64,000 nt of DNA from assembly GCA_030390025.1 (NCBI GenBank), contig JASTWF010000323.1, positions 1-64,000 on the forward strand, given 5' to 3'. Shown here one piece after another: positions 11,631-44,910 of the stretch. Source of the stretch: Squalus acanthias (Eukaryota). The stretch's first letter is position 1. Each line of letters opens with the position of its first letter. The notes under the pieces were generated by a model, which was not told where the DNA came from, did not search any database, and saw only the letters and a list, made by a program, of their open reading frames with translations. The position numbers and the translations under genes are program-made.

Positions 11631-11782
11631 GTTAACGATCCTTCAGCCAGTGGAAACAGTTTCTCTTTATTTTCTCCATCTAATCCATTCATGATTTTGA
11701 ACACCTCTATCAAAACTCTTCTTAGCCTTCTCTGCTCTCAGGAGAACAATCCCAGCTTTTCCAGTCTATTTTAAAATAGTAA

Positions 11783-12000
11783 AAATTAAAGACTTTTACT
11801 GAAATGATCTGAGATAAACAAATAAGTAAACCTCTCTCATGGGCCCATGGAAACCAGCTGGGCTTTGCTGCTGTAACATAACTTGTCTTCAGCTGCCCAG
11901 CATGAAGGGTGTAGGGAGATTGGAACTTGTAAAGGTGATTGGTCTGAGCATGATATGTTCAATATTGGGGAATGGTCTGTGTATATTGGAACTTTAATGT
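11783..12000. repeat. Duplicate of the gene's upstream region (paralog of 44905-45115 and 23345-23555)
   Basis: Shared unique sequence aaattaaagacttttactgaaatgatctgag...ccagctgggctttgctgctgtaacataacttgtcttcagct. Confidence 0.85.
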
Positions 12001-12002
12001 GC

Positions 12003-13520
12003 ATAAGGACATAAGAAATAGGAGCAGGAGTTGGCCATTCGGCCCCTCGATGCTGCTCCGCAATAAGATCATGGCTGATCATCTACTTCAACGCCACCTT
12101 CCCGCCCTATTCCCATATACCTTGTTTCCATGGTGCCCAAATATCTATCAATCTCAGGCTTAAATATACTCATCGACTGAGGATCCACAACCCTCTGGTG
12201 TAGAGAATGCCAAAGATTCACAGCCCTCCGAGTGAAGACAATTCTCCTCATCTCAGTCCTAAATGGCCGAACCGTTATCCTGAGCCTATGACCCCAATTG
12301 AAGACTCTCCAGCCAGGAAAACAGCCTCTCAGCATCTATCCTGTCAAGACCTTTAAGAATTTCATACGTTTCAATGGGATCACCTCTCATTCTTCTAAAC
12401 ATTGGAGAATATGGCCCCTTTCGACGTGATTTCTCCTCATAGGACAACACTTTCTTCATCGGAATCAATCCAGAGAACAATCGTTGCACCCGCTCTGAGG
12501 CAATTGTATCCTTCCTTAGATAAGGAGACCAAAACTGTGCACAGTACAGGTGTGGTCTCACCAGAGCCATAATTGCTGCAATAATTCCTTACTCTTATAC
12601 TCCATCCCCCTTGCAATAAAGGGTAACATACCATTTCCCCATCTAATTGCTTGTTGTACATTCAAGTTAACTTTCGGTGATTCGTGTACAAGGACCTCCT
12701 AAATCCCTCTGAATACCAACATTTATTATGTTCTCATCTTTAAAAAATGTGTTTTTTTTACCATTCTTCCTATCCAAGTGGATAATTTCACATTTCCCCA
12801 CATTATGCTCCATCTGCCACGTACTTGCTCAATTACTTAACCGGTCTATATCCCTTTGCAGCCCCCTGCGACCTCCTCACAGCTTAGAATAAGTTGAGAG
12901 GGGAAGTGAAGGTAAAAATAAGATTGGCAAAGAGTGATTATGAGAGTAAAATGGCGGTGAACATAATAGGGAACCCAAAAATGTTCTACCAGCATGTAAA
13001 CAGTAAGCGAGTGGTAAGAGGCGGGGTGGGGCCTATTAGAGACAAAGAAGGTAATATATACTTAGAGGCGCAGGGCAAGGCGAGAATAGTCAATGAGTAC
13101 TTTGTATCGGTGTTTACTAAGGAGGTGCATGCTGACAAAATATCGGTAGAAGTGGAAACGGTAGAAAGAATTGAAGGGGCGAAAATTGACAGACATGAGT
13201 TACTAGAGAGGCTTGCCATGCTTGGAGTGCACAAGTCGCCTGGGCCAAATGGCTTGCAACTCACGTTGCTAAGAGAATTGGCGGAGGAGTTAGCGGAGGA
13301 AATGTTTCCTCAAGTTCGTATTCCAATCACATTATATTTGTGTATTGTGGTTAACGACCCTTCAGCCAGTGGAAACAGATTCTCCTTATTCTCTCTATTA
13401 AAACCAGTCACGATTTTGAACACCTCAACCAAATCTCCCATAAACCTCTCTGGTCTATGCAGACAAATCCCAACTTCTCCAGTCTCTCCACATAACTGAA
13501 GTCCCTCATCCATGGCACCA
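12003..13520. mobile_element. Cluster of CR1 fragments (12003-12883 minus; ~12890-13300 plus; ~13300-13520 minus)
   Basis: RT C-terminal peptides on both strands (LYCAQFWSPYLRKD; NEYFVSVFTKE). Same arrangement at 23558-25060. Confidence 0.8.
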
Positions 13521-13879
13521 TTCTGCTTCTGTCCAATTCCATTACTTATAAATGACCTTTAAGCATCACTTCAACATTGACACATGACTGTTCGGAAGGG
13601 ATTCAACCTGTAAATATTCTCTCACTAACACTCAGTCTCCATTAAAGACCAGCCTTGGTGATGCTTGACTTTCAGTTTAAATACAGAGACCATCGCAGTC
13701 CCTTTACTGTCCCCGTGTTAGCGGGTGAGTGAAGCAGTTAGATTCTGGGACATTGACATCCCATCAGGGCACTCGCAGTGTCCCACGTCCTGGTTACAGA
13801 AACGCTCTCCCAGTAAGACCCCATCTGGAATTCTGTGTTCAATTCTGAGCAGAGCACCTCAGGAAGGATATATTGGCGA

Positions 13880-14560
13880 ACACTCCACCCCCACCCCCCC
13901 AGATTTCCTGACCTTCTCTGCCCCGCCCCGAGTTCCTGACATTTGTCCCACAGAGTTCCTGACCTATGCCCCCGAGTTCCGGACATTTGCCTCCGCAGAG
14001 ATCCTGACTTTTGTACCCTCCCAGTTCTTGGCTTTTGGCCCCCAATTTTCTGACATTTGCTCTCCCCCGAGGTCTTGACTTTTGCCCCCCAATTCCTGAC
14101 ATTTGCCCAGCTCCTAGTTCCTGACCTTTGTCCCGCGAGTTCCTGAACTTTGCCCCCCGAGTTCCTGTACTTCCCCCCCGACTTCCTGACCTTTGCCACC
14201 CACCGAGTTCATGACCTTTGTCCAACTGAGTTCCTGACCTTTTTGCCCCCCCTCGTGTTCCTGACCTATGCCAAACCCCCGATTTCCTGACCTTTGCCCC
14301 CCCCCGAGTTCCTGACCTTTGCCACCCACCGAGTTCATGACCTTTGTCCCACCGAGTTCCTGAACTTTTTGTCCTCCGATTTCCTGACCAGTGCCCACCC
14401 CCCCGTTTTCCTGACCTGTGCCCCACAAAGTTCATCACCTTTGTCCAACGAATTCCTGACCTTTCTGCCCTCCGCCGTGTTCCTGACCTCTGCCCCCTCC
14501 CCGATTTCCTGGCCTTTGCACCGCCCCCCCGAGTTCCTGACCTTTGCCCCCGCCCCCCAA
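13880..14560. repeat. GC-skewed minisatellite, ~21-24-bp variable unit (GAGTTCCTGACCTTTGCCCC)
   Basis: Tandem copies directly downstream of the exon C2 donor; source of spurious ORFs 13725-14638. Confidence 0.9.
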
Positions 14561-14566
14561 ATGTAC

Positions 14567-14731
14567 CTGTGCAATAAGCAGATTTACTCTTGGGTGTCGG
14601 CTTCAACTCATAAACGAAGTAACTGGTGCAGTTTTTGATCTTTATCTCCAGGTTCTCATCGCAGGGTTTACCAACCTTGGTAAAACAAATTGTCCCCGTC
14701 ATTTCTCCCTGTCCCACGGTGGGATGAGAAT
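14567..14731 (-). CDS. Cassette 2 exon C (C-terminal D8C half)
   Basis: gtttcag|AT...ACAG|gtacat, 165 nt, phase 1-1. SHPTVGQGEMTGTICFTKVGKPCDENLEIKIKNCTSYFVYELKPTPKSKSAYCT. Confidence 0.9.
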
Positions 14732-14823
14732 CTGAAACGAGGTTTATAAATATTGAAGAATGTACCGAGGTGAACAGTGCTGGACAGTGAATGTAAATCT
14801 GAGATTATAAAGTCTGAAATTAC

Positions 14824-14900
14824 CCTTTAACCAGCCTGGGTGCTTTGTGGAGCAGCGATCCTTTGGGACCTCAGTCTCGGGAATCTTCCATCCACCAGAA
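14824..14900 (-). CDS. Cassette 2 exon B (middle D8C exon)
   Basis: ttccag|T...AAGG|gtaatt, 77 nt, phase 2-1. SGGWKIPETEVPKDRCSTKHPGWLK. Confidence 0.9.
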
Positions 14901-15061
14901 CTGGAACAAAAATCACATAGTCAGCCCCTGAACTGATGGCACTTATTAACTGACAGAAAGACTGGGAACTGACTGGTTGGGAAAGGTCACACCATGTTTC
15001 TGCTCTGCAAGTTAGAGGCCGGGGTTAAATAGCTGGTTAGCGTTAAAGCAGTAGCTTGGAG

Positions 15062-15445
15062 ATTAGTAACTGTTAATATTACATTAAATTAGTAACTGTT
15101 AATATTATATTAAATTAGTAACTGATAATACTACATCATATTAGTAACTGTTAAAACTATCTTACATTAGTAACTGTTGATTCTATATTAAATTACTCAC
15201 TGTTAATACTACAAAAAATTAGTAACTTTAATACTATATTTAATTAGTGACTGCGAATACTACATTAAATTAGTTACTGCTAATACTATATTTAATTAGT
15301 GACTATTAATACTACATTAAATTAGTAACTATTAATACTGCATTAAATGAGTAACTGTTAATACTATATTAAATTACTAACTGTTAATAATATCTTAAAT
15401 TAGTGACAGTTAATACTCTATTAACTTAGTAAGTGTTAATAACAT
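15062..15445. repeat. 26-bp AT-rich minisatellite
   Basis: Tandem ATTAGTAACTGTTAATACTAYATTAA. Confidence 0.9.
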
Positions 15446-15509
15446 ATAATAATAACTTCAATTAGGTACCCCTGTAGTGTTAGTAAAGTTAGGTAATAGT
15501 CAGATAAAA

Positions 15510-21660: not shown

Positions 21661-21835
21661 CTCTCTGCAGTGTCCGGTTGTGCCCCTTCCCCTGTATGAA
21701 CTACCTTCCCTATTTTTCTGACTGAGGATCCCGGTCTCTCTGCAGTTCCCATTCCAACACTCACACTGTAATCTTTTTTGGACATTTGCTCCTCGCTCAT
21801 CGACTATTTTATCTGTAATTTCCCCCTCACGTTAC

Positions 21836-21986
21836 CTTTTAAATCTGTACCATCCATGAACAAGTTCCTCATCACATTTCCACTTCTCATGGCCGACGCA
21901 CTGAGTCCAACTACAGTCCGTGCTCCTCCAGGGCTGGTCCAGGACTGTGTGATTTACACACGGTTCAGTGGGTGCGGAGCCTGCGA
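21836..21986 (-). CDS. Cassette 2 exon A (N-terminal D8C half)
   Basis: cactcag|TC...AAAAG|gtaacg, 151 nt, phase 1-2. AGSAPTEPCVNHTVLDQPWRSTDCSWTQCVGHEKWKCDEELVHGWYRFK. Confidence 0.9.
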
Positions 21987-22558
21987 CTGAGTGACAGAAT
22001 GATGTTTCATGTTATTATAAAGTAGAGTTAATATTACACAGCGGCTTGTACACCCCGAAGCACCAATAACCTTTGTCACACTCTCCGCACTGTTAGATAA
22101 TCCTCAAATGAAAACTGGAAACTTTCCTCCCTCTCTCAACTTTATTTCCATCTCTCTCCCAGCCCAGCCTCCCCTCTAACTCTCTGTTCACTGACAGTTC
22201 TCCCTATTCTAGATCAACCCTTATCTCTCAGGTAACAGAAAGCAGCAAAGTCCTCAGCTTCACTTCGTTCAATAGAAAAGCTGGAAATGTAAAGCAGGAA
22301 TTTAGCTATTGTGTTAACCAGGCACTGTTCTGTGTCCCTAAAAGTTGGGCTCCGTTTTACTTCGATTAACACAGAGACTCAGGATGTCCGGATCACTCTC
22401 ACACTCCCCCTCTCTCCTCACAGACTGATCTCTCTGTTCTACATTAACTGTTATGTACCAGCTACAGAGCGCCGTGTGCCAGGGTAAGTTTCAGTCTGCA
22501 GCTCCCGCTGGCACATCCAAAATTTGGTCTCCTCCTCCTGCACCTGCAGACTGAGCTG

Positions 22559-22705
22559 GTGAATAGAGTGCAGATGGTGAGTGTCACTGGATGGTCAGTA
22601 AGAGATATCATGGGGTATCTCAGTCCCCAGGTGAACACTGAGCGCAAATGGTGAGGGAAACTCGATGGTCAGTGAGAGATATCATGGGGTATCTCAGTCC
22701 TGGGG
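22559..22705. repeat. 74-bp minisatellite, 2 copies
   Basis: Same unit as 32743-33106. Confidence 0.75.
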
Positions 22706-22902
22706 TGAAATTAGATTAAGAATTACTTTCTATTGCAGGTTTTCATTGAAAAACTATATATAAATATATATATATATATGAGTATTGGATATATTAATAA
22801 TAAATATATAATAAATTGGAGGCTGAATATCAAAGTTATTTTAACAGTATATTGTACAAATTGTATGATCAATATTCTGATAGAATTAATGATTATATGA
22901 AT

Positions 22903-25060
22903 ATCATAGAATCATAGAATAGTAAAGCACTGGATGAGGCTATTCCGCCCATGGAGTCTGCGCTAGCTCTTTCGAAGATCAATCCAGTTAGTCCCACTCC
23001 CCGCTCTTTTCCATATCCCAGCATTTGTTCTCCTGCAATTATTTATCCAATTCCCTTTTGAAGGCTGCTACTGAATCTGTTTCTAATACCCTATCAGGCA
23101 GTGCTTTCCAAATCCTAAACACACGTTGCATAAAAAAGCTTTATCTCGTGTCGCCTCTGGTTATTTTCCCAATCACCTTAAATCTGCGCCCTCTTGTTAT
23201 CGAACTTCAGCCAGTGGAAACAGTTTCCATATTTTCTCTATATAAACCCATCATGATGTTGATCACCTCTACCAAATCTCCTCTCAGATTTCTCTGCTCT
23301 CAGGAGAATGACCCCAGCTTTTCCAGTCTATTTTAAATTAGTCAAAATTAAAGACTTTTAAAGAAATGATCTGAGATAAAGAAATAAGTAAACAACACTC
23401 CTGGGCCAATGGTAACCAGCTGGGCTTTGCTGCTTTAACCTAACTTGTCTTCAGCTTCCCAGCATGAAGGATGTAGGGAGATTGGAACTGGGGAGGCTCT
23501 GAGCAGGTTATGGTCAATATTGGAGAATGGTCTGTATTCATTGTAACTTTAATGGGCGTAAGAACATAAGAAATAGGAGCAGGAGTAGGCCATTCGACCC
23601 CTCGAGTTTGCTTCGCAATAAGATCATTGCTGATCTTCTACCTCAGCGCCACCTTCCCGCCATAACCCATATACCTTGGTTCCATTCGTGCCAAAATATC
23701 TATCAATCTCAGTCTTCAATATATAAAATAATCGACTGAGGATCCACAATCCTCTGGTGCGGAGAATTCCAAAGATTCACAACCCTCTGAGAAAGATATT
23801 TTTCCTCATCACAGTCCTAATTGGCTGAGGCCTTATCCTGAGACTATGACACCAACTTAAGACTCTCCAGCCAGGGAAGAACAGCCTCTCAGCATCTACC
23901 CTTTAAGAATGTTATACGTTTCAATGAGATCACCTCTCATTCTTCTAAAAATTAGAGAATATGGACCCATTCGACGTGATTGCTCCTCATAGGTCAACAC
24001 TTTATTCACCGGAATCAATCTAGAGAACATTCGTTGCACTCCCTCTGAGGCACTTATTTCCATCTTCAGATAAGGACACCAAAACTGTGCACAGTACAGG
24101 TGTTGTCTCCCCAGAGTCCTATATAATTGCTGCACGAATTGCTTAGTCTGATACTCCATCCCCCTTGCAATAAAGGGTAACATACCATTTCCCCTCCTCA
24201 ATTGCTTGCTGTACCTGCGAGTTAACATTCAGTGATTAGTGTACAAGGACCTCCTAAATCCCTCTGAATACCAACATTTATTAATTTCTCAGCTTTAAAA
24301 AATGTGCTCTTTTTCCATTCTTCCTATCAAATTGGATAATTTCACATTTCCCCACATTATACTCCATCTGCCACCGACTTGCTCAATTACTTATCCGGTC
24401 TATATCACTTTGCAGCCTCCTGCGTCCTCCTCACAGCTTTGAGAGAGGATGTGAAGATGAAAATAAGATTGGCAAAGAGTGAATATGAGAGTAGAATGCG
24501 ATGAACATAAAAGGGAACCCAAAAATGTTCTACCAGCATGTAAACAGAAAGCGGGTAGTAAGAGGCGGGGTGGGGCCTATTAGAGACAAAGAGGTGATAT
24601 ATGCTTAGAGGCGCAGGGCAAGCCGAGAATACTCAATGAGTTCTTTGTATCGGTGTTTACTAAGGAGGTTGGTGCTGACAAAATATCGGTAGAAGTGGAA
24701 ACGCTAGAAGCAATGGAAGGGGTGAAAATTGATAGACAGGAGGTACTGAGAGGCTGGGTATGCTTAGAGTGGACAAGTCGCCTCGTCCAGATGGCTTGCA
24801 TACGAGGTTGCTAAGGGAATTGGGGGAGGAGTTAGCGGAAGGAAATGTTTCCTCATGTTCTTATTCCAATCACATTATATCTGAGTCCTCTGGTTACCGA
24901 CCCTTCAGCCACTGGAAACAGATTCTCCTTATTTACTCTATTAAAACCAGTCACGATTTTGAACACATCAACCAAATCTCCCATAATCCTCTCTGATCTA
25001 TGCAGACAAATCCCAGCTTCTCCAGTCTCTCCACATAACTGAAGTCCCTCATCCATGGCA
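22903..25060. mobile_element. CR1 fragments flanking a duplicate of the upstream region (23345-23555)
   Basis: Minus-strand CR1 3' ends at ~22903-23331 and ~23558-24438, and a plus-strand fragment ~24440-24845; mirrors 11630-13520. Confidence 0.8.
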
Positions 25061-25404
25061 CCATTCTGCTTCTGCCCAATTCCAGTGCATAAAATGACCT
25101 CTCAGCATCAGCTCAACACGGAAGGGCTTCAACCTGTAAATATTCTCTCAATAACACTCAGTCTCATTAAAGTCCCATCCTTGGTGATGCTTGACTTTCA
25201 GTTTAAATACAGACACCATCGCAGTCACTTTACTGTCCCAGTGTTAGCTGGTGAGCAGCAATCAGGTTGTGGGACATTGACATCTCATCAGGGCACTCGA
25301 AGTGTCCCTCGTCCTGGTTACAGAAACACTCTCCCAGTAAGACCCCATCTGAAATTATGTGTTCAATTCTGAGAAGAGCACCTCAAGAAGGATATATTGG
25401 CCAT

Positions 25405-26010
25405 CACTCCACCCGCCCCACCCCAGAATTCCTGACCTTCTCTCATCCGCCCCGAGTTCTTGGCATTTGTCCCACAGAGTTCCTGACCTATGTCCCCGAG
25501 TTCCGGACATTTGCACTCCCCAGTCCCTGACCATTACTCCCTCGAGTTCCTGATATTTGCCCCCGCCGAGATCCTGACTTTTGTACCCTCAGAGTTCTTG
25601 GCATTTGCCCCCGAATTTCCTGACATTTGCCCTCCCCCGAGGTCTTGACCTTTGCCCCCCAATTCCTCACATTTGCCCACCTCCTAGTTCCTGACCGTTG
25701 TCCCGCGAGTTCCTGAAATTTGCCCTCCCCCGAGTTCCTGTACTTAACCTCAGTTCCTGACCTTTGACCCGCCGAGTTCCTGACCTTTGCCCCAACCCCG
25801 TGTTCCTGAACTTTGACACGCCGAGTTCCTGACTTTTGCCACCCACCGAGTTCATGACAATTGTCCCACCGAGTTCCTGACGTTTTTGCCCCCCCTACTG
25901 TGTTCCTGACCTCTGCCCACTCCCCGATTTCCTGACCTTTGCCCCCCCCCCGGAGTTCCTGACCTTTGCCCCACCCGAGTTCCTGATATTTGCCCCCACC
26001 CCCACCCCTG
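25405..26010. repeat. GC-skewed minisatellite (GAGTTCCTGACCTTTGCCCC)n
   Basis: Paralog of 13880-14560, downstream of the exon C1 donor. Confidence 0.9.
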
Positions 26011-26013
26011 TAC

Positions 26014-26178
26014 CTGTGCAATAAGCCATGTCACTCTCGGGTGTCGGCTTCAACTCATAAACGAAGTAACTGGTGCAATTTTTGATCTTTATCTCCAGGG
26101 TCTCATCGTCGGTATTTCGTTTCTCGGTAAAACAAACTGTCCTCTCCACTTCTCCCTGTCCCACGGTGGGATGAGAAC
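26014..26178 (-). CDS. Cassette 1 exon C (C-terminal D8C half)
   Basis: gtttcag|GT...ACAG|gtacag, 165 nt, phase 1-1. SHPTVGQGEVERTVCFTEKRNTDDETLEIKIKNCTSYFVYELKPTPESDMAYCT. Confidence 0.92.
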
Positions 26179-26271
26179 CTGAAACGAGGTTTGTAGATAT
26201 TGAAGAATGTAACCGAGATGAACAATGCTGGACAGTGAATGTAAATCTGAGATTATAATGTCTGAAATTAC

Positions 26272-26348
26272 CCTTTAACCAGCCTGGGTGCTTTGTGGAG
26301 CAGCGATCCTTTGGGACCTCAGTCTCGGGAATCTTCCATCCACCAGAA
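26272..26348 (-). CDS. Cassette 1 exon B (middle D8C exon)
   Basis: ttccag|T...AAGG|gtaatt, 77 nt, phase 2-1; identical to 14824-14900. Confidence 0.92.
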
Positions 26349-26509
26349 CTGGAACAACAATCACAGAGTCAGCCCCTGAACTGATGGCTTTTATTAACTT
26401 ACAGAAAGACTGGGAACAGACTGGTTTGTAAAGGTGACACCGTGTTTCTGCTCTTCAAGTTAGGGACCGGGGTTAAATAGCTGGTTTTGGTTAAAGCAGC
26501 AGCTGAGAG

Positions 26510-27110
26510 ATTAGTAACTATTAATACTACATTGAATTAGCAACTGTTAATATTATATTAAATTAGTGACAGTTAATACTGCATTAAATTAGTAACTGTT
26601 AATACTATACTTGATTAGTGACAGTTAATACTACATTAAATTAGTAACTGTTAATACTATATTTAATTAGTGACTGTTAATACTACATTAAATTAGTAAC
26701 TGTTAATACTATATTTAATTAGTGACTGTTAATACTACATTAAATTAGTAACTGTTAATACTATATTAAATTAGTAACTGTTAATACTATATTTAATTAG
26801 TGACTATTAATACTACATTAAATTAGTAACTGTTAATACTGCATTAAATTAGTAACTGTTAATACTATATTAAATTAGTGACAGTTAATGCTACTTTAAA
26901 TTAGTTTCTGCTAATACTGTATTAAATTAGTAACTGTTAATATTATATTAAATTAGTAACTATTAATACTGCATTAAATTTGTAACTGTTAATACTAAAT
27001 TAAATTAGTGACAGTTAATACTACATTAAATTAGTAAGTGTTAAAACTACGATATATTAGTAACTGTTAATAATCTATTAAATTAGTAAGTGTTAATAGC
27101 ATATATTAAT
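26510..27110. repeat. 26-bp AT-rich minisatellite
   Basis: About 22 tandem copies of ATTAGTAACTGTTAATACTAYATTAA. Confidence 0.92.
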
Positions 27111-27172
27111 AACTTCAATTAGGTACCCCTCTAGAGTTAGTAAAGTTGGGTAATAGTCAAATAAATAGAGGC

Positions 27173-30100: not shown

Positions 30101-31077
30101 GGCCTACAGTTGTTCTCCCCAGGGGTCAGTTCTAGAGCCACTGCTTTTCTTGATATATATAAATGACTTGGATGTGGGTGTACAGGGCACAATTTCAAAA
30201 TGTGCACATGCCACAAACTTCGAAGTATAGTAAACAGTGAGGCGGATAGTGATATAATTCAAGAGGACATAGACTGGCTGGTGGAATGGGCGGCCACGTG
30301 GCAGATGAAATTTAATGCTGAAAAGTGCGAAGTAATACATTCTTGTAGAAATAATGGGGAGATGAAATATAAACTAAGGGATAAAAAATCCTAAAGTGGG
30401 TGCATGAACAGAGAGACCACGGGGTATATGTGCACAAGTCGTTGAAGGTGGCAGGACAGATTGAAAAAGCTTCATGAATAGATGTATAGAGTAAAAAGCG
30501 TGAATATTAAAATGAACCTATCTAAAACACTGGTTCGGCCTCAACTGGAGTATTGTGTCCAATTCTGGACAGCGCACTTTAGGAAGAAAATGAACGCCTT
30601 AGAGAGGGTGCAGAAAAGATTTATAAGAATGAATCCGCGGATAAGGGACTTCAGTTATGATGATAGACTGGAGAAGCTGGGGTTGTTCTCCGTAGAGCAG
30701 AGAAGAGATTTGATAGAGGTGTTCAAAATCATGAGGGGTCTGGACTGAGTAAAAAGAGAGAAACGGTTCCCATTGACAGAAGGGTCGAGAACCAGAGGAC
30801 ACAGATTTAAGGTGATTGACAGAAGAACCAAAGGCAACATAGGAAAAACTTTTTTGTTCAGCGAGTGGTTAAGATCTGGAATGCAACGCCCGAAGTTGTG
30901 GTGGTGGCAGACTCAATCAGAGCTTTCAGAAGAGCGTTGGATAAGTAACCAGCGGAAAAGTAATTGCAGGTCTACGGCGAAAGGGCGGGGAGTGGAACTG
31001 GTTGATGTAATCTTGCAGAGAGCTAGCACGGGCTAGATGGGCCTAATATCCCTCTTCCATGATGTTACCATTCTATG
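27173..31077 (+). mobile_element. Near full-length decayed CR1 LINE (~3.9 kb)
   Basis: ORF1 start ATGGCAGCTCAGTCC, esterase and RT remnants (RPQLEYCVQFW), 3' end ...ccattctatg. Confidence 0.9.
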
Positions 31078-31121
31078 AAAGACTGGGACCCGCAGAGAGA
31101 ACCGGAAAATGAGGCCCATCC

Positions 31122-31850
31122 ATTACTCTCTGTCCCCGTTCTATATTCCCCTCTATCCCGGGTATCTCCTTTTACTCTCTGTCCCCGTTCCATATACCCC
31201 TCTATCCCGTGTATCTCCCTTTACTCTCTGTCCCCGTTCTATTTTCCTCTCTATCCCGGGTATCTCATTTTACTCTCTTTCCCCGTTCTATATTCCCCTC
31301 TATCCCGGGTATCTCCCTTTATTATCTGTCCCCGTTCTATATACCCCTCTATCCGGGTATCTCCCTTTACTCTTATTCCCCGTTCTATATTCCCCTCTAT
31401 CCCGGGTATCTCTCTTTATTCTCTGTCCCCGTTCTATATTCCTCTCTATCCCGGGTATCTCCCTTTACACTCTGTCCACGTTCTGTATTCCTCTCTATCC
31501 CGGGTATTCCCCTTTACTCTCTGTTCCCATTCTATATTCTCTCTATCTCGGTATCCACCTTTACACTCTGCCCTTTTCTATAATTCCCTCTATCTTAAAG
31601 AAGGAGATAGATAGATTTCGAGACACAAAAGGAATCAAGGGGTATGGGGAGAGAGCGGGACTATGGTATTGAGATAGAGGATCAGCCATGATCATATTGA
31701 ATGGCGGAGCGGGCTCGAAAGGCCGAATGGCATCCTCCTGCACCTAGGTTTCTATGTTTCTATATTTTGGGTATCTCTCCTAACACTCTGTCCCTGTTCT
31801 ATATTCCCCTCTATCCGGGGTATCTCCCTTTAATCTCCCTGTTTCTCTCT
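31122..31850. repeat. 49-bp minisatellite interrupted by a short CR1 3' end (~31590-31765, plus)
   Basis: Same unit as 20715-21660; insert reads aagaaggagatagatagattt...ggtttctatgtttctat. Confidence 0.9.
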
Positions 31851-32019
31851 GCAGAGTCCGGTTGTAACCCTTCCCCTATTTGAACTACTTGCCCTATATT
31901 TCTGACTGATGATCCCGGTCTCTCTGCAGTTCCCATTCCAACACTCACACATCCATCTGTTTTGGACATTTACTCCTCGCTTATCGACTAGTTTATCTGT
32001 AATTTCCCCCTCACGTTAC

Positions 32020-32170
32020 CTTTTAAATCTGTACCATCCTTGAACAAGATCTTTATCACTCTTCCTCTTCTCATGAACGACGCACTTATTCTTAATACAG
32101 TCCGTGCTCCTCCAGGTGTCCTCTAGGACTGTGTGATCTTCACACGGGTCAGAGAGTGCGGAGTCTGTGA
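32020..32170 (-). CDS. Cassette 1 exon A (signal-peptide end plus N-terminal D8C half)
   Basis: ccctcag|TC...AAAAG|gtaacg, 151 nt, phase 1-2. TDSALSDPCEDHTVLEDTWRSTDCIKNKCVVHEKRKSDKDLVQGWYRFK. Confidence 0.92.
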
Positions 32171-32742
32171 CTGAGGGACAGAATGATGATTCATGTTAAT
32201 ATAAAGTGCAGTTAATGTTACAATTTGGCTTGTACCCCCCGAAGCACCAAAAACCTCAGCCTCACTTTCCGCCCTGTTAGAAATTCCCCCAAATGAAAGC
32301 TGGAAACATTCCTACTTCTCTAAACCAGAATTCCTCTGTCTCCCAGCCCAGCCTCCCCTCTAACTCTCTGCTCACAGACAGTCCTCTCTATTCTAGATTC
32401 ACCCTTAGCTCTCAGCTAACAGAAAGCTACAGAAACCTCAGCTTCACTTCGTCCAATCGAAAAGCTGCAAATGTAAAGCTGGAAGTTCACGATTCTGTAA
32501 ACCAGGCTTCGTTCTGTGTCCATAAAAGTTGGTTTCCATTTTACTTCTATTAACACAGAGACTCGGGATGACCGGCTCCCTCTCACCCTCTCCCTCCCTC
32601 CTCACAGACAGTTCTCTCTGTTCTACATTAACTGTTATGTCCCAGCTACAGAACGCCGTGTGCCCGGGTAAGTTTCAGGCTGCAGTTTCCGCGGGAACCT
32701 CCAACGTTTGGGACCCTCCTCCTGCACCTGCAGACTGAGCTG

Positions 32743-33299: not shown

Positions 33300-33850
33300 A
33301 TATCATAGAATCATGGCATAGTCCAGCACTGGTGGAGGCCATTCGGCCCATCGAGACTGCGCCGGCTTTTTCGAAGATCAATCCAGTTCGTCCCACTCGC
33401 CCACTCTTTCCCCATATCCCAGCAATACTTATCCTGCAATTTTTTACACAATTCCCTTTTGAAGGCTGCTACTGAATCTGTTCCCACCACCCTATCAGGC
33501 AGTGCTTTCCAAATCCTAAACACTCGTTGTGTAAAAATCCTTTATCTCGTTTCGCCTCTGGTTATTTTCCCAATCACCTTAAATCTGTGCCCTCTTGTTA
33601 TCAACCATTCAGCCAGTGGAAACAGTTTCTCTTTATTTTCTTTATCTAAATCCTTCATGATATTTAACAACTCCGTAAAATCTCCTCTTAGACTTCTCTG
33701 CTCTAAGGATAACAACCCCAGTTTCTCCAGTCTATCCATATAACTGTAATCCCTCATCCCTGGAACCATTCCAGTAAATCTCTTCTGTGCCCTCTCCAAA
33801 GCCTTCCTAAAATGACGCGCCCAGAATTGGACACAATTCTTCAACTCTGA
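33300..33850 (-). mobile_element. CR1 3' fragment
   Basis: ORF 33542-33844 (CVQFWARHFRKALERAQKRFTGMVPG). Confidence 0.85.
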
Positions 33851-34442
33851 CCGAACTCGTGAATATGAAAAATAAATTTAAAGATAAATATAAGAATAGA
33901 ATATAAAGATTTCAAATAAATGACAATGGGAAATATAAACAAAAATACAAATGTAAATGATAATTTAAATGCACAAATACATAAATATAAGTATTAAATT
34001 AAAAAAAACAAATTCAGCACGCTAAATATTAGAAGGAAATATGTAAATATAAGTATAATATTTACAGTAAATATCAGTTTCTGTGCAAATAAAGAGCAAT
34101 GATTTCAGGGCATCTCAAAGGTAGTAAAATTTTTCAATTCAATTGCGGTGAAAACAGAGCCAAGGAAGGCTGAAAATATACAATATCAATCAATAATGCA
34201 AATGTTAAAGATATATTACAAATCCATAATAAATAATATCAATCAATAATGCAAATTTTAAAGATCTATTACAAATCCTTAATATATAATATCAATCAAT
34301 AATGCAAATGTTAAAGATCTATTACAAATCCATAATAAATAATATCAATCAATAATGCAAATGTTTAAGATCTATTACAAATCCTTAATAAATAATATCA
34401 ATCATCAATGCACATATGAATGATCTATTAAAAATCCTTAAT

Positions 34443-36690
34443 AACAACAACAATGTATACTTATATAGCGCAAATAACGCAGTAAAACGTCCCAAGGCGC
34501 TGCACAGGAGTATTTTAAGAAACAAATTTGACACCAGCCTCATAATGATAAATTAGGGCAGGTGACCAAAAGCGTGGTGAAAGAGCTATGTGGGAAGGAG
34601 CGTCTTAAAGGAGGAAAGAGAGGTAGCAAGGCGGGAGGTTTACGCCAGGAATTCCAGAACTTGGGGCCAAGGCAACAGAAGGCACAGCCACCAAAGGTTG
34701 AGCGATTTCAATCAGGGATGCTCAAGAGTCCAGAATTAGAAGAGCACAGATATCTCGGGGGTTTGTGGGGCTGAAGGAGATTACAGAGATAGGAATTGGG
34801 GAGGCCGTGGAGGGATTTGAAAACAAGGATGAGAATTTTGAAATTCGGGCGCTGCTTAACCGGGTGCCAATGCAGGTCATCGAGCAAAGGGGAGATGGGC
34901 GAACGGGACTTGGTGCGAGTTAGGACACAGGAAGCCGAGTTTTGGATGACCTCAATTTTACACAGGGTGGATTATGGGATGCCAGCCAGGAGTGCGTTGG
35001 AATAGGCAAGATGTAGCAAAGGCATGGATGAGGGTTTCAGCAGCACATGAGCTAAGGCAAGGGCAGAGACGGGCAACGTTATGGAGGTGGAAGTAGGCGG
35101 TCTTTGTCATGCTGCGAATATGTGGTCGGAATCTCATTGCATGGTCAAATATGACACCAAGGTTGCGAACAGTGTGGTTCAGCCTCAGACAGATGTTGGG
35201 GAGAGGGATGGAGTCAGTGGGTGGGTAACGGAGTTTCTGGCGGTGACGAAAATAATATCTTCGGTCATCCCAATATTTATTTGGAGAACATTTTTGCTCA
35301 TCCAGAACTATATGTTGGACAAGCAGTCTGACAATTTAGACACCGTGGAGGGGTCGAGTGAAGAGGTGGTGAGGTAGAGCTGGGTGTCGTCAGTGTACAT
35401 ATGGAAACTGATGCTGTGTTTTCGGTTGATGTCGCCAAGGGGCAACATGTAGCTGAGAAATAGGAGGGGTCAAGGATTGATCCTTGGGAGCCACCAGAGG
35501 TAACGATGCGAGAGCGGGAAGAGAAGCCGTTGCAGGTGATTCTCTTGCTAATATTAGATAGATAAGTATGGATCCAGGTGAGAGCAGTTCAACAGAGCTG
35601 GAAAACGGTGGAGAGGCGTTGGAGAAGGATGGAGTGGTCAACCGTGTCAAAGGCTGCAGACAAGCCAAGAAGGACGAGGAGAGATAGTTTACTTTTGTCA
35701 CAGCCATAAAGGATGTCATTTGTGACTTTGATGAGAGCCGTTTCGGCACTGTGGCAGGGCGGAAACCTGATTGGAGGGATCCAAACATGGATTTGCGGGG
35801 AAGATGGGCACGGATTTGGGAGGCGACAACACTTTCAAGGACTTTGGAGAGGAAAGGGAGGTTGGAGATGGAATGGTAGTTTGCAAGGACCGAGGGATCA
35901 AGGTTTGTTTTTTTGAGGAGAAGGGTGACGACGGCACATTTGAGGGCGAGTGGGACAGTACCTTTTAGAGAGAACCGTTAACAATATTACCTAACATGGG
36001 AGACGGAAAAGGAAGTTGGGTGGACAGCAGTTTGATGGGAATAGGGTCGAAGGTGCAGGAGTTGGGTCTCATGGACAAGATGAGTGCAGAGAGGTCATGA
36101 GGGAAGATTGGAGAGAAACTGGAGAAAGATGTGAGTTCAGTGCTAGGGCAGGGGGGAAATTACCGTAAGTTCGGCCTGGTTTGGTAGGGGAAGGAAGGGA
36201 AGTGGCAGAAACAGCTGAATGGATAGACTCAATATTAAAGACAAAGAAGTCAATGAGATCCTTACACTTGTTATCGGAGGTGAGGGTGGAGGAGACAGTG
36301 TAGAGCGTTTTAAGAAGACGGTTAGCAGTAGAAAATAAGACTTGGGATTTATCATGCATTCAAGAACGATTCTGAAATAATGAGCAATTTCGACAGACGA
36401 CAGCAGGACTCAATAATGCTTTCCGTGGTCCAGCCAAATCAGGCGCTGAATGGCTGAACCAGATGTTCGCCATATCCGTCCAAGTCTGGACCCTTGGACT
36501 TAAGGAAGCAAAGATGAGAGCCGTACCATGGTGAACGGCCAGAGTGACAATAAATTTTTCTAGTAGGACATAGGGCATCAAAGGTGATGTTGAGGGTGTG
36601 GTTGTGCAGATCGGTAGCTGTAGAAATGTCATGGTAAATGGAGGGTCAGAGGCTGGACAGTTGGGATTTCAGAAGTGCAGTTGTAAGAGA
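34443..36690 (-). mobile_element. L2 LINE, 5'-truncated, decayed
   Basis: RT remnant [10 protein letters not shown] (35390-35788 -). L2-type 3' end ...GCGCTATATAAGTATACATTGTTGTTG on the minus strand. Confidence 0.85.
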
Positions 36691-38958
36691 GTTGGTAGTG
36701 GGGAAATCCTGAATAAGTAATATCAATCAATAATAAAAATATTAAAAGGTCCATTACAAACCCTTAATTAATAATAATCAATAATGCAAATATTAAAAAT
36801 CTATTGCAAATCCATGATAATGCCAATATTAAAGATCTATTACAAATCAATTTTAAATAATATCAATCAATAATGGCAATATTAAAAAAATATTACAAAT
36901 GCATAATGAATAATATCAATAAATAACGCAAATAATAAAGATCTATTACAAATCCTTAATAAATAAATGGATCATTAATGCAAATATTAAAGACCTATTA
37001 CAAATCCGTAAAAAAGAACATCAATCATTAAAGTAAAAATTAAAGATCTTTTGCAAATCCATAATAAATAATTTCGATCAATAATTCAAATATTACAGAT
37101 CTATTGCAAATCTGTAATAAATCAAATCAATCAAAAATGCAAATATTAAAGATCTATGGCACATTCATAATAAATAACATGGATCAATAATGCAAATATT
37201 AAATATCTATAACAAATCCTTAATAAATAACATCGATCAATAATGCAAATATTAAAAAACGATTGCAAATCCATAATAAATAACTTCGATCAATCATTCA
37301 AATATTAAAGATCTATGGCAAATCCAGAATAAATTATATGGATCAATAATGCATATATTAAAGATCTGTTAAAAATCTTTAATAAATAACATCGATCAGC
37401 AATGGAACTATTAAAAATCTATTACAAATCCGTAATAAATGACATCAATAATGTGATATTAAAGAACTATTAAAAACCTTCAAAAATTACATCAATAATG
37501 CATATATTAAAGATCTAATACAAATCCTAAATACATGACATCAATCAATAATGCAAATATTAGAGATCTATTACAAATCCTTCATAAATAATATCAATAA
37601 TGAAAATACTAAAGATCTATTGGAAATCCATAGTAAATAACATCGATCAATAATTCAAATATTAATGATCTATTGCAAATCTTCCTAAATAAAATCAGTC
37701 AATAATGCAAATATTAAAGATCTATTACAAATCCTTAATAAATAACATGGATCATTGATGCAAATATTAAAGATCCATTACAAATCCTTAATAAATAAAC
37801 TCAATTAATAATTCAAATATTAAAGATATATTGCAATTCCACAATTAATAATATCAATAAATTATGCAAATATTAACGATCTATTACAAATCCTTAATAA
37901 ATAACATGGATCATTGATGCAAATATTAAAGATCCATTACAAATCCTTAATAAATAAACTCAATTAATAATTCAAATATTAAAGATATATTGCAATTCCA
38001 CAATTAATAATATCAATAAATTATGCAAATATTAAAGATCTATTACAGATCCTTAATAAATAACATCAATCAATATAGCAAATATTAAAGATCTATTGCA
38101 GATCCTTAATAAACAACAAGGATCATTAAAGAAAATATTACAGATCTATTAGAAATCCTTAATAAACAACATCAATCAATAATTCAAATATTAAGGATCT
38201 ATTGCAAATCCATAATAAATAACTTTGATCAATCATTCAAATATTAAAGATCTGTGTAAAATCCAGAATAAATAATATGGATCAAAAATGCAAATATTAA
38301 AGCTCTGTTACAAACCCTGAATAAATAACATCAATCAATAATACAAATATTAAAGATCTATTACAAATCTTAAAAAATAACATCAATAATTGAAATATTA
38401 AAGGTTTGTTACAAATCCTTAATACATAACATCAATAAATAATGCTAATATTAAAGATCTATAACAAATCCTTCTTAAATATATTGGATCATTAATGCAA
38501 ATATTAAAGATCTATTACAAATCCTTAATAAATAATATCAAACAGTAAAGCAAATATTAAAGATCTCTTACAAAACCCGAATAAATAACAGCGATCAATA
38601 ATGCAAATATTAAGATCTATATAGAAATCCTTAATAAATTATATCAATCAATAATGGAACTATTAAAAATCTATTACAAATCCTTAATAAATTACGTCAA
38701 TAATGGAAATATTAAAGATCTATTACAAATCCATAATAAATAACATCAATCAATAATATAAATAATATAGATCTATTACAAAGCCTCAATAAATAACATC
38801 AATCCATAATGCAAATATTAAATAATTTTTACAAATCTTTAATAAATAATATCAATAAGGTAAATATTAAAGATCTATTGCAAATACATTATATTGCAAA
38901 TCCATTATAATGGAAATATTAAAGACATATTACAAATCCATACTGAATAATATTATTA

Positions 38959-40160
38959 GTGGATGTGGTGTATTTGGACTTTCAGAAGGCTTTCGATAAG
39001 GTCCCGTATAAGAGATTAGCATGCAAAGTTAAAGCACATGGGATTGGGGATAAAGTACTGAGTTGGAAAGAGAACTGGTTGGCAGACAGGAAGCAAAGAG
39101 TTGGAATAAATGGGTCTTTTTCCGAGTGGCAGGCAGTGACTAGTGGGGTACCGCAGGGATCGGTCCTAGGACTCCAGTTATTCACAATATATATTAATGA
39201 TCTAGACGAGGGAACTAGATGTAATATCCCCAAGTTTGCAGACGACACAAAGCTGGGTGGGCGTGTGAGTTGTGAGGAGGATGCAGAGAAACTCCAGTAT
39301 GATTTGGAAAAGTTGGGTGATTGGGCAGATGCATGGCAGATGCAGTATAATGTGGATAAATGCGAGGTTATCCAGTTTGGTGGCAAAAACTGGGAGGCAG
39401 ATTATTATCTGAAGGGCTATAGATTGGGAAAAGGGGAAGTGCACCGAGACCTGGGAGTCCTTGTGCACCAGTCGTTGAAGGTAAGCATGCAGGTGCAGCA
39501 GGCGGTTAAGAAGGCAACTGGTATGTTGGCCTTCATAGCGAGAGGATTCGAGTACAGGAGCAAGGATGACTTGCTGCAGTTGTACAGGGCCTTGGTGAGA
39601 CAACACCTTGAGTATTGTGTGCAGTTTTGGACGCCTTATCTGAGGAAGGATGTTCTTGCCATGGAGGGAGTGCAACGAAGATTCACCAGACTGATACCTG
39701 GGATGGCAGGAATGACGTATGAAGAGAGATTGGGACGATTGGGCTTGTATTCGCAAGAGTTTAGAAGAATGAGAGGGGATCTAATTGAAACGTATACAAT
39801 TCTAACAGGACTAGAGAGACTAGATGCAGGAAGGATGTTCCCGATGGCGGTGGAGTCCAGAACCAGTGGTCCCAGTCTAAGGATAAGGGGCAAGCCATTT
39901 CGGACTGAGGTGAGGAGGAATTTCTTCACCCAGAGAGTGGTGAACCTGTGGAATTCTCTACCACAGAAGGCAGTTTATCAAATTCATTAAATATATTCAA
40001 GAAGGAGTTAGATATGTTTCTTAAGGCTAAGGGGATCAGGGATATGTGGAGAAAGCAGGGACAGGATACTGAATTTGGATGATCAGACATGATCTCATTA
40101 AATGGCGTTGCAGGCTCGAGGTGCCGAATGCCCTACTCCTGCTCCTATCTTCTGTTTCTA
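38959..40160 (+). mobile_element. Young 5'-truncated CR1 with an uninterrupted 343-codon RT C-terminal frame
   Basis: DVVYLDFQKAFDKVP...GVPQGSVLG...FADDTKL...LEYCVQFW, followed by a CR1 3' UTR. Confidence 0.95.
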
Positions 40161-43100
40161 CAATATCAATCAATAATGCAAATATTAAAGATCTAATACA
40201 AATCCTTAATAATAAACATGAATCATTAATGAAAATATTAAAGATCTATTGCAAATCCTTAATAAATAATATCAATCAATAATTCAAATATTAAAGATAT
40301 ATTGCAACACCATAATTAATAATCTGAATCAATTATGAAATATTAAAGATATTTTACAATCCTTAATAAATAACATCAATCAATAATGCAAATATTAAAG
40401 ATCAATTGCAAATCCATAATAAATAACTTTCATCAATCATTCAAATATTAACAATCTATGGCAAATCCAGAATAAATAATATGGCTGAATAATGCAAATG
40501 TTAAATATCTGATAAAAACCCTAAATTAATAACATCAATCAATAATGCAAATATTAAAGATCTATTAAAAATCCTTCAAAAATAACATCAATAATGCAAA
40601 TATTAAGGATCTATTACAAATCCTTAATAAATAACATCAATCAAAAATGCAAATATTAAAGATCTATTGCAAATCCATGATAATGCAAATATTAAAGATC
40701 TATTACCAATCCATAATAAATAATATCAATCAATAATGGAAATATTAAAGATCTATTACAAATCCTTAATAAATAACATGGATCATTCATGCAAATATTA
40801 AAGGTCCATTACACATCCTTAATAAATACCATCAATCAATAATTCAAATTTTAAAGAGATATTGCAAATCAATAATTAATAATATAAATAAATTATGCAA
40901 ATATTAAAGAGCTATTACAAATCTGTAAAAAATATCAATCAAACATGCAAATATTAAAGATCTATGGCAAATCCATAATAAATAATATGGATCAATAATG
41001 CAAATATTAAAGATCTATTACAAATCCTTAATAAATAACATCGATCAATAATGCAAATATTAGTGATCTATTACAAAGCCTCAATAAATAACAAAGATCA
41101 TTAATGGAAATGTTAAAGATCTATTACAAATCCTTAATACATATCATCAATCAAGAATTAAAATAATAAAGATCTATTGCAAATCCATAATAAATAACTT
41201 CGATCAATCATTCAAATATTAAAGATCTATGGCAAATCCAGAATACATAATATGGATCAATAATGCATATATTAAAGATCTGTTAAAAATCTTTAATAAA
41301 TAACTTCGAACAGCAATGGAACTATTAAAAATCTATTGCAAATCCATAATAAATGCCATCAATAATGGAAATATTAAAGAACTATTACTAAACCTTCAAA
41401 AATAACATCAATAATGAAAATATTAAAGATCTAATACAAATCCTTAATAAATAACATCAATCAATAATGCAAATATTAAAGATCTATTACAAATCCTTAA
41501 TAAATAATATCAATAATGCAAATATTAAAGATCTATTGCAAATCCATAGTAAATAACATCGATCAATAATTCAAATAGTAATGATCTATTGCAAATCTTA
41601 CTAAATAAAATCAGTCAATAACGCAAATATTAAAGATCTATTACAAATTCTTAATAAATAACATCGATCAATAAAGCAAATATTAATTATCTGTTACAAC
41701 CCCTAAATATATAACATCAATTAATATTACAAATATTGAAGATGTATTACAAATTTTAATAAATGACATCAATAATGGAAATATTAAAGGACTATTACAA
41801 ATCCTTAATAAATAACATGGATCATTAATGCAAATATTAAAGATCTCTTGCAAACCCTGAACAAATAACATCAATCAATAATGCAAATATTAAAGATCTA
41901 TTACAAATCCTTCAAAAATAACATCAATAATGCAAATATTAAGGATCTATTACAATTCCTTAATAAATAAAATCAATCGATAATGCAAATATTAAAGCTC
42001 TATTACAAATCCTTAATAAATAACATGGATCATTGATGCAAATATTAAAGGTCCATTACACATCCTTAATAAATACCATCAATCAATAATTCAAATTTAA
42101 AAGAGATATTGCAAATCAATAATATCAATAAATTATGCAAATATTAAATAGTTATTGCAAATCCGTAAAAAATAACATCAATCAATAATGCAAAAATTAA
42201 AAATATTTTGCAAGTCCATAAAAATAATTTCGATCAATAATACAAATATTATAGGTCTATTACAAATCTTAATAAATAAAATCTATAATGGAAATATTAA
42301 AGGTCCATGACAAATCCTGAATAAATAACATCAATAATGCAAATATTAAAAATCTACTGGAAATCCATAATCAATTTCTTCGATCAATAATAAAAACATT
42401 GAAGATCTATTGCAAACATTTAATAAATAAAATCAATTAATAATGCAAATATAAAAGATCTGTGGCAAATCCATAATAAATAACAATAATCAATAATGTA
42501 AATATGAAAGATCTGTTAAAAATCCTTCATAAATAATATCGAACAATAATGCAAATATTACATAGCTGTTACAATCCCTTAATAACTATCATCAATCAAT
42601 AATGCAGATATTAAATAACTATTACAAATCCCAATTAAATAACATAAATAATGGAAATATTAAAGAACTATTACAAATCCTTAATAAATAACATCAATCA
42701 ATAATGCTAATATTATATATCTGTTACAAACCCTGAATAAATAACATCAATAATGGAAATATTAAAGAACTATTACAAATCCTTAATAAATAACATCAAT
42801 CAATAATGCTAATATTAAAGATCTATTACAAATCCTTAATAAATGACATTATTCAATAAAGCAATTATGAAAGATCTATTGCAAATGCATAATAAATAAT
42901 TTCAATCAATAATGCAAATATTAAAGATCTATTACAAATCCTTAATAAATAACATCAAAGCATAATTCAAATATTAAACATCTATTACTATTCTAGAATA
43001 AATAATATCAATTAATAATTCAAATATGATATATCTTTTACAAAACCGTATAGATAATATCGATCAATAATGCAAATATTAAATATATATTGCAAATGTA

Positions 43101-43319
43101 TAATATAATCAACATTGCAATATTAAAGATCTAATACTATAACATAATAAATCATATAATTAATCATTATCAATAATGAAATTGTTAAATATCTTTTATA
43201 AATGCATTATAAATAGTATTGATCAATAATGCAGATATTAAAGATCTATTGCAAATGCATAGTTCTACATGTGATCAGTAAGTAAATGTATACTATGTAT
43301 AATATTATGTAAATATGTA

Positions 43320-44075
43320 CAGCATAAAATTACAAAGAATTTACAGCACAGAAACAGGCCATTCAGCTCAATTGGTCCTAACGGCATTTATTCTCCACAA
43401 CGAGACTCCTCCCACCATTCGTCATCTAACCCTATCAACATATCGTTCCCTTCCTTTCTCCCTCATGTGCTTATCTATAATCTATTCACCGAAACTTGTT
43501 CATGTGTTAGCGAGTTCTGCATTCTCAGCACGCTCTGGGTAAAGAAGTTGCTGCTGAATTCCCTGTTGGATTGTTATCTTATATTGATGGCCCCCTAGAT
43601 CTCGCCTCAGCTATATGTGGAAACATATTTAATACGTTTACATTCATAATTTAAAGACCTCTATCAGCCCCCCCACTCAGCCATCTCTTTTCGAGAAAAA
43701 GAGCTCCAACCAGTTTAGTCTTTCCTGAAAGTGAGAACATCTCAGTTCTGGTATCATCTTGGAAATCCTTTTTCGCACCCTCTACAGTACCTCTACATCC
43801 TTTTTTGTAATATGGAGAACTAAACTTCGCACAGTAATGATCGAATACCTATCGCAATTGCATAAGTTTTAAATCTGATCGGCCGTTCCTTCATCGTCGC
43901 TGGGTCAAAATCCTGGTGCTCCCTCCCTAACAACACTGTGGGAGTACCATTCCCACACGGACTGCGGCGGTTCAAGAAGGAGGCTCACCACCACCTTCTC
44001 AAGGGGAATTAGGGATGGGCAATAAATGCTGGCCTTGACAGCGACGCCCACATTCCATGAACGAATAACAAAAAT
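43320..44075. mobile_element. Old CR1 3' remnant (minus, ~43320-43870) and LINE/SINE 3' end (plus, ~43885-44075)
   Basis: acagcacagaaacaggccattc-type CR1 end, then ...gctcaccaccaccttctcaagggg...aataaatgctggcc...gaataacaaaaa. Confidence 0.65.
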
Positions 44076-44272
44076 TAAAAGTATAAATAATAGGAATGTA
44101 AGAATTTCAATTTAAACTCCATGTTTGAACCTCTCCAATTAGGTTTCCGCCCCTGCCACAGCCCTGAAACTGTCCTAATCAAAATCACAAGCGAGAAGTG
44201 CCTTGGGAGATTTTGCTACGTAAAGACATTAAATAAACACGGTGCAATTTGTTTATAATGAAAATTACTTAC

Positions 44273-44306
44273 TCAGGTAACCGAGAATCAGCAGCAGAGT
44301 CCTCAT
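44273..44306 (-). CDS. Leader (signal peptide) coding part of exon 44322-44273
   Basis: ctttacttccag|AATATCACCCGGTGAG ATG AGG ACT CTG CTG CTG ATT CTC GGT TAC CTG A|gtaagt. MRTLLLILGYL + phase 1, joining exon A in frame to give ...ITDSALS/DPC. Confidence 0.85.
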
Positions 44307-44686
44307 CTCACCGGGTGATATTCTGGAAGTAAAGACACGGAATTTGTATTAGAGAGAGTTGAGGGAATGGGGGATCAGAGGGAACTTTAAATAGGGAGCT
44401 GGACAAGGTATCAGTGGGTATATCTATTTATAATGGGTGAGCTCTAACTCTCTTCCTCATTGAGACCCCTCTGGGAGCTCCACCTCCTTACATGTCCTTG
44501 ATAAACACCAATTCCTGACTCTCTTTCCAGCCTCCCGTTACAGAACCCTTTCTAATATTCTAACACAATTCTTTACTGAGCACAGTATTGGGTTAGGACA
44601 AGCGCTAAACACACCCTGAGTCCCTACTCAGCAAGTGACAAACTTCTGAGATTGTTCTAAAAGTCCATTCATACAAGTCTGCTTAC

Positions 44687-44800
44687 CAGAGTCTACAAAT
44701 GATGCTTCGCTGTGTGAGACGCAGTGGGTTCAGATCACCTGCACCCTCCCAGTCTCAGCTACAATCTGCTGTGAGCGGTGCCGGACTCAGTGACAGCTCA
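44687..44800 (-). other. Putative non-coding first exon (5' end uncertain)
   Basis: Strong donor CTCTG|gtaagc at 44687/44686 in non-repetitive, relatively GC-rich sequence upstream of the leader exon's acceptor. Confidence 0.45.
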
Positions 44801-44804
44801 TCCA

Positions 44805-44910
44805 CCAACTCCGCCCACATCAGAAACACGTGTGACTGAGGGCAGTGCTGGTTGGCTGACTGAATCTGGTTTAGTAATGTTCTTTCATATAGCAGAATTC
44901 ATGCAAATTA
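44805..44910 (-). promoter_or_regulatory. Putative promoter region
   Basis: Position upstream of the putative first exon; GC-box-like CCGCCC (~44810), E-box CACGTG (~44827), octamer ATGCAAAT (44901-44908). Motif-only evidence. Confidence 0.3.

Follow-up and report, generated by a model that had tools for sequence, protein, structure and literature searches.

A probable D8C domain-repeat expansion in a gene of Squalus acanthias, with a history still legible at three shared junctions

On the minus strand of a 64,000-nucleotide stretch of Squalus acanthias DNA (assembly GCA_030390025.1, contig JASTWF010000323.1, positions 1 to 64,000 of the forward strand; this whole stretch is the window) lies a gene consisting of one leader exon and three D8C (uromodulin-type) modules of three exons each (Table 1). 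At this locus, a domain repeat has probably expanded inside a shark gene, whose predicted product is a secreted protein bearing D8C/D10C heads of the uromodulin type. Three sequence junctions, J1, J2 and J3, are all common to units 2 and 3. A prediction made earlier from the sequence (the original prediction) had reported one of them, J3; J1 and J2 are two more that copies 2 and 3 have in common.

The leader has counterparts in models from sharks and skates, and matches that of a Heptranchias model with E = 1e-8. In a scan of the minus strand of the window, it was the sole exon combining an ATG, a hydrophobic stretch and a phase-1 donor, and the same scan found no leader exon belonging to units 2 or 3. 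The stretch covered by exons B and C of a module scores as D8C (PF23283, 30 bits against a cut-off of 27). With 151 + 77 + 165 = 393 nt in phase 1/1 (387 nt expected for module 3), the unit is a symmetric exon module, flanked by introns of the same phase and with a length that is a multiple of three. GT-AG sites are present at all module junctions inside the window, and the leader and modules 1-2 read as one open frame. A signal peptide followed by PF23283 modules, the combination that characterizes the elasmobranch D8C-stalk family, is thus found here. The short B-C intron of module 1 (26179-26271) is 93 nt long, in frame and free of stops, and the reading frame would survive if this intron were retained; its counterpart in module 2 measures 92 nt.

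Self-comparison places three tandem units in the first 33.7 kb of the window (1-33.7 kb). The introns were copied together with the exons: they align collinearly over kilobases, pieces of long interspersed nuclear elements (LINEs) included. As the original prediction stated, a CR1 fragment is joined to DNA of the 44905 type in both downstream copies, with a 13-nt filler in between. The fillers of copies 2 and 3 mismatch at 2 of the 13 positions, and a 19-nt J3 string, with up to three mismatches allowed, occurs at two sites in the window, both at J3. Only in copy 1 does the CR1 run on past 33735, as it also does in the three other CR1 copies compared (62k, 13k and 59k); hence, copies 2 and 3 carry a deletion, and J3 is its junction. 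The alternative that the 11 kb is an unrelated insertion was rejected, since the CR1 is unbroken only in copy 1 and the interval contains the leader of the family. The predicted loss of the leader is likewise confirmed: modules 2 and 3 have none of their own and therefore depend, as secreted products, on the upstream one.

The right breakpoint had been placed in an octamer. Indeed, the start of the shared match falls within ATGCAAAT (44901-44908). However, the octamer occurs 47 times in the window, 44 times in a satellite and 3 times elsewhere, and nothing indicates a function. As the motif is rare outside the satellite, the coincidence is real, but it was spotted after the fact. The 44 perfect motifs all lie in the satellite of the intron that follows the leader. 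For the filler, an origin as a templated copy or a breakpoint at 44883 was considered and dropped (9/13 matches for copy 3, shuffle fraction 0.08; 7/13 for copy 2, shuffle fraction 0.94), and no convincing template was found elsewhere in the window.

The interval absent from copies 2 and 3 contains 5,630 nt of the 53-bp satellite and ~3,460 nt of LINE-derived sequence. One CR1 reverse-transcriptase piece within it probably is young and was inserted after the deletion, because its 347-codon frame would hardly still be open had it decayed neutrally from the time when copies 2 and 3 separated (P ~0.001). The missing interval is, in this respect, probably in part younger than the deletion itself: the ~11 kb describes its present-day size, and the piece originally deleted was probably smaller.

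From the last exon of a module to the flank of the next unit, only ~610-690 nt are available in copies 1 and 2, nearly all minisatellite, which is followed directly by a piece of the upstream array. No convincing stalk or C-terminal exon was detected between the units by tblastn with 21 relatives and stalk/C-terminal pieces, the best match (E = 0.025, 13 residues) lying outside the units. As stalk exons are short and variable, the missing room is a stronger argument than this negative result. No 3' half was thus found in copies 1 and 2; the window ends within exon C of copy 3. The duplicates were originally taken for whole genes, a view with which the few hundred nucleotides of minisatellite do not agree. 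Next to J3 in unit 3, a LINE-derived piece (9700-11620) stands in place of ~1.2 kb of intron.

Comparison of the three copies reveals two different topologies. Over the upstream flank, the smallest distance is that between copies 2 and 3 (11.4%, against 18.2% and 16.2% to copy 1), and in the array-derived piece they differ by 8.2%, with 16.0% and 16.6% to copy 1. In four blocks of the body, on the contrary, copies 1 and 2 are closest (9.1-13.6%), and copy 3 is 15.6-19.9% away from both. Odd-one-out sites, counted per copy (1/2/3), number 116/65/43 in the flank as against 277/275/573 in the body (Fisher p 3e-21). The topology switches between 23331 and ~20264, and near exon A the signal is mixed. 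Copy 2 is, hence, a hybrid, with a flank sister to copy 3 and a body sister to copy 1, as would be left by an unequal crossover in a two-module ancestor. Such a crossover hybrid would never have had a leader, and therefore a single ancestral copy would have lost one. The original proposal that two duplicates each lost autonomy is not supported, one deletion and a copy 2 born leaderless being the likelier account.

The modules are not in the same state. Module 3 carries three lesions (two frameshifts and one stop), and its spliced frame ends at codon 365, position 56; mutual compensation of the frameshifts was rejected, as the frame hits this stop. Modules 1 and 2 look maintained: in a rough simulation, open frames with intact splice sites since their split have P ~0.0006 under neutrality. 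Recent decay is possible. The two modules differ at 43 non-synonymous and 7 synonymous positions. Exons A and C differ by 15-17% between them. Exon B, by contrast, shows 0/77 differences, and hardly any are seen in the short B-C intron (compared over 26170-26420 and 14723-14972), which could reflect a conversion tract or constraint. Exon B identity was set aside as proof of purifying selection, since the neighbouring short intron is nearly identical too. Motif mapping suggests that C7 and the C2-C9 pair are missing from module 1, and C9 from module 2. This would leave one unpaired cysteine in each, which could pair between modules or mark decay. In a module tree of 38 rows, none of the modules of the window belongs to a starred group and module 3, which is partial, sits on a long branch, so the tree is uninformative on origin.

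Of the 21 proteins retrieved by a homologue search, 20 belong to sharks and rays; the remaining one, from a coral, was left out of the counts of D8C stretches and ZP domains. The typical elasmobranch protein has a signal peptide, one to four D8C modules and, after a Ser/Thr stalk, a short C-terminal part. Two to four D8C stretches are present in 13 of the 20, and Pfam detects a ZP domain in none of these 20. The modules directly abut in 12 of the 13 multi-module proteins; one has a stalk in between. Module number differs in 0 of 6 isoform or adjacent-accession pairs, not counting the same protein from another assembly and a stalk-only model on another contig. In Mustelus (P0001-P0003, P0009 and P0013), internal modules begin with Asp-Pro, like stalk exons, instead of the usual linker, which suggests a separate origin through a chimeric exon.

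Three sequencing runs of the same species, presumed by guess to be RNA, were aligned to 21700-32400 only, a stretch outside which the leader lies; portions that no read covered were given no weight as evidence. In run X2, one contig joins 26014 (the exon C donor) exactly to 32170 (the exon A acceptor), and a further joint bridges exons B and C. The exon C-to-A joint is the only module-level junction seen among the 15 of 58 joints listed. The cassette gene of the original prediction is doubtful: both the relatives and one contig of reads suggest that modules are chained, although the symmetric phases, which pose no barrier to joining or skipping modules, would permit skipping, and for the dead module 3 it may be necessary.

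Upstream of the leader, an array of ~3-kb units contains five candidate 5' exons of 95-113 nt, one per unit. They resemble an N-terminal extension that, in a Pristiophorus model, continues into the leader (scores of 44-83, where 20 shuffles reached maxima of 21-37). They show no extra conservation, with an identity of 0.84-0.85 versus 0.76-0.88 in their flanks. A sixth, truncated candidate starts at 49114. The five units possibly form an array of alternative 5' exons. No homologues of these exons were found in units 2 and 3; the duplication may, therefore, have been intragenic from the start. An array element (46734-46931, with copies to 61833) matches the C-terminal 70 residues of the Heterodontus model P0010 (E 3e-18). 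The end of that model is probably spacer sequence annotated by mistake, a hint that another shark order has genes in tandem, separated by this spacer. A weak tRNA-like Rfam match (52362-52431, plus strand, 31 bits) probably derives from a short interspersed nuclear element.

A putative promoter at 44.9 kb and a putative first exon ending at 44687 are candidates without independent support. The ratio of observed to expected CpG of this segment is 0.43, against 0.46 for the window, so no enrichment exists, and the donor hexamer of the putative exon occurs 8 times on the minus strand. In an octamer-driven promoter of the immunoglobulin type, the octamer is Oct-bound and lies at a fixed distance from the start site. 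If the first duplicate carried a working proximal promoter, the downstream copy lost its autonomy, as the original prediction had it.

Table 1. Coordinates of the leader, modules, junctions and upstream features in the window.
Feature	Position	Strand	Remarks
Leader exon	44273-44322	-	50 nt; ATG 44306; 11 codons + 1 nt; phase-1 donor; present once
Module 1 exon A	32020-32170	-	151 nt; starts with signal-peptide end
Module 1 exon B	26272-26348	-	77 nt
Module 1 exon C	26014-26178	-	165 nt; phase-1 donor
Module 2 exon A	21836-21986	-	151 nt
Module 2 exon B	14824-14900	-	77 nt; same sequence as module 1 exon B
Module 2 exon C	14567-14731	-	165 nt
Module 3 exon A	9523-9667	-	145 nt; in frame
Module 3 exon B	198-275	-	78 nt; +1 frameshift; TAA at 204-202 in ancestral frame
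Module 3 exon C	1-105	-	cut by window edge; -1 frameshift
J1	25403-25416; same join ~13878-13893		minisatellite of post-exon-C intron to truncated array CR1 (54009-equivalent)
J2	24438-24857; same piece ~12887-13300		~420-nt LINE piece in place of 46013-47173-equivalent
J3	23332-23344 (unit 2); 11770-11782 (unit 3)		CR1/44905 deletion junction
Order in copy 2	CR1 to 23331; filler 23332-23344; 44905-type DNA from 23345		13-nt filler
Order in copy 3	CR1 to 11769; filler 11770-11782; 44905-type DNA from 11783		13-nt filler
Flank copy in unit 2	23345-24437		copy of 44905-46013
Flank copy in unit 3	11783-12886		copy of 44905-46013
Interval absent from copies 2 and 3	33736-44904		CR1 tail, 53-bp satellite in three blocks, LINE pieces, leader
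53-bp satellite	34171-34450, 36701-38950, 40161-43260		AT-rich; intron after leader
CR1 reverse-transcriptase piece	38947-39987	+	inside satellite; 347-codon open frame
Putative proximal promoter and non-coding exon	44687-44908	-	octamer 44901-44908; TATA-like word; donor after 44687
Array of ~3-kb units	46508-62411	-	upstream of leader
Five candidate non-coding exons	60806-60694, 57810-57716, 54811-54699, 52174-52062, 48106-47994	-	GC donor

The history can be pictured as follows. The 5' part of the gene, from the upstream flank or an intron of the 5' untranslated region to the intron after exon C, would have been duplicated in tandem (J1). The deletion at J3, which took the second leader region, would have come next. 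When the leader, which has an acceptor of its own, is placed after exon C, the computed frame meets a stop at the seventh codon of the leader; a retained internal leader would stop translation, and its loss probably opened the way for in-frame splicing from exon C to the following exon A. The outcome would have been a two-module gene under the upstream start. Copy 2, a mosaic, may then have arisen by an unequal crossover near the module start, copying the junction block and most of module 1. The expected product is a single messenger RNA with the leader and serial modules, an arrangement seen for the family in gene models and one contig and predicted for the locus itself. Module 3 would have decayed since, and the present transcript would skip it or end early.

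Several observations weigh against this history. J1 fits a partial duplication and a deletion between two whole genes alike, and gene conversion, for example at exon B, may have made copies 1 and 2 more alike. Between modules 1 and 2, the proportion of non-synonymous differences (pN, 0.140) exceeds the synonymous one (pS, 0.084), and their cysteine counts are odd (7 in module 1 and 9 in module 2); both also fit decay. As module 3 is dead, a simple constitutive chain would be non-productive. The relatives are automatic gene models. The exon C-to-A contig comes from one of the three runs, with 90% likeness, and may represent a paralogue or a back-spliced circle, and the 15 of 58 joints listed do not include the one expected from module 1 to module 2 (26014 to 21986).

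The rival explanations account for some of these points. A fusion of two tandem whole genes, in which J1 cost the upstream gene its stalk, C-terminus and spacer and J3 the downstream gene its leader, copy 2 again arising by crossover and the product being chained, is rather unlikely. The Heterodontus model ending in array-like sequence (E 3e-18) is what would be expected for tandem genes with that spacer, and the divergences of flank and body to copy 1 are alike (16-20%). This scenario requires, however, one extra large deletion, and the stalk or C-terminal relic looked for between the units was not found. Death of the whole locus, with neutral rearrangements in a dying member of a birth-and-death family, would explain the three lesions of module 3, the unpaired cysteines of modules 1-2 and the fact that silent change is not in excess. 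With the leader, modules 1-2 and their splice sites intact, at the P ~0.0006 given above, a decaying pseudogene is improbable, although its death may be recent.

A cassette gene, with variable heads on a common stalk, would splice its single leader to a choice of modules or regulate their skipping. Every module is in phase 1/1, so that any skip keeps the frame, a full-length product needs module 3 skipped, and modules 1 and 2 have diverged mostly at non-synonymous positions (43 vs. 7). Such a gene is, nonetheless, judged quite doubtful: none of the six pairs of relatives differs in module number, the models of the relatives chain their modules, the sole module-level read junction (among the joints listed) is exon C to exon A, and the modules have no leader of their own, unlike 5' arrays of the Pcdh/UGT1 type. 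There is also a slight chance that the gene stands between array and cassette, with three diverging D8C heads under one signal peptide, module skipping now required and the five candidate 5' exons maybe serving as alternative starts. Should splicing select heads according to the cell, sharks would have here a secreted decoy or receptor system with variable heads in the making, its founding breakpoints still legible. An ordinary domain-repeat expansion with an unusually well-preserved history is most likely.

In clustered protocadherin and UGT1 arrays, every unit has its own start, chosen by promoter. Like these arrays and the 5' cassettes of chelicerate sDscam, the locus presents tandem N-terminal variable units before a presumed common 3' part. 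The anatomy is, however, the opposite, as the downstream units lost leader and flank. A promoter and start for each unit are not found here: the leader-like exon is single, and units 2 and 3 have no homologues of the upstream exons. Mutually exclusive cassette exons of the Dscam1 type admit, by way of splicing, a single unit per messenger RNA; here, the phases would let modules be joined, and module number is constant in all 6 pairs of relatives.

No paper on this shark family or its junction history was among the matches listed in the open-access literature. Among known proteins, elasmobranch uromodulin-like, GP2-like or uncharacterized models (XP_067884563.1 of Heterodontus, XP_078055451.1 of Mustelus and XP_032880858.1 of Amblyraja) have the same leader and the same D8C module, and their internal modules also start with the tail of a signal peptide. 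These models have a stalk and a C-terminus; here, any such part lies beyond the window. They differ in that the genomic history is legible here, through flank relics in the introns and the three shared junctions, and that module 3 is broken. For the human GP2/UMOD decoy module, a D10C disulfide pattern is described in PMC8930769. The domain family (PF23283) is shared with that module, a glycan-decoy function would be conjectural here, and, unlike in human GP2/UMOD, no ZP or EGF part is seen.

Extracellular domains expand by exon duplication, mid-array (Bjorklund et al. 2006, PMC1553488), and ligand-binding domains of TGF-beta receptors have been duplicated, the chained form of TGFBR2 being predominant and skipped forms marginal (PMC13187141), according to the available sections of both articles. 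In those systems, a multi-exon extracellular domain was likewise duplicated with its introns. Here, the first duplication took in the leader and the 5' flank, so a leader-removing deletion was needed, a step not met in those sections. Partial duplicates are common (PMC3449122). In the mammalian APOBEC3 double-domain genes, tandem modules and their flanks were duplicated and deleted by unequal crossing-over, and single-domain units combine into multi-domain proteins (PMC2612020). Tandem modules seem to have been copied with their flanks by unequal crossing-over here as well, but, in contrast to the artiodactyl APOBEC3 units, which also make single-domain proteins, the downstream units are without a leader.

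A new expression mechanism is not demonstrated, and demonstrated module choice would raise the importance of the locus. On the favoured reading, its value lies in illustrating clearly the steps by which an extracellular domain at the N-terminus turns into a repeat: a 5' duplication, a frame-rescuing deletion of the leader and an unequal crossover. The fossil upstream flank in the introns, which is uncommon, lets the order of events be read. This history would account for the signal-peptide remnant at the start of internal modules in the family.

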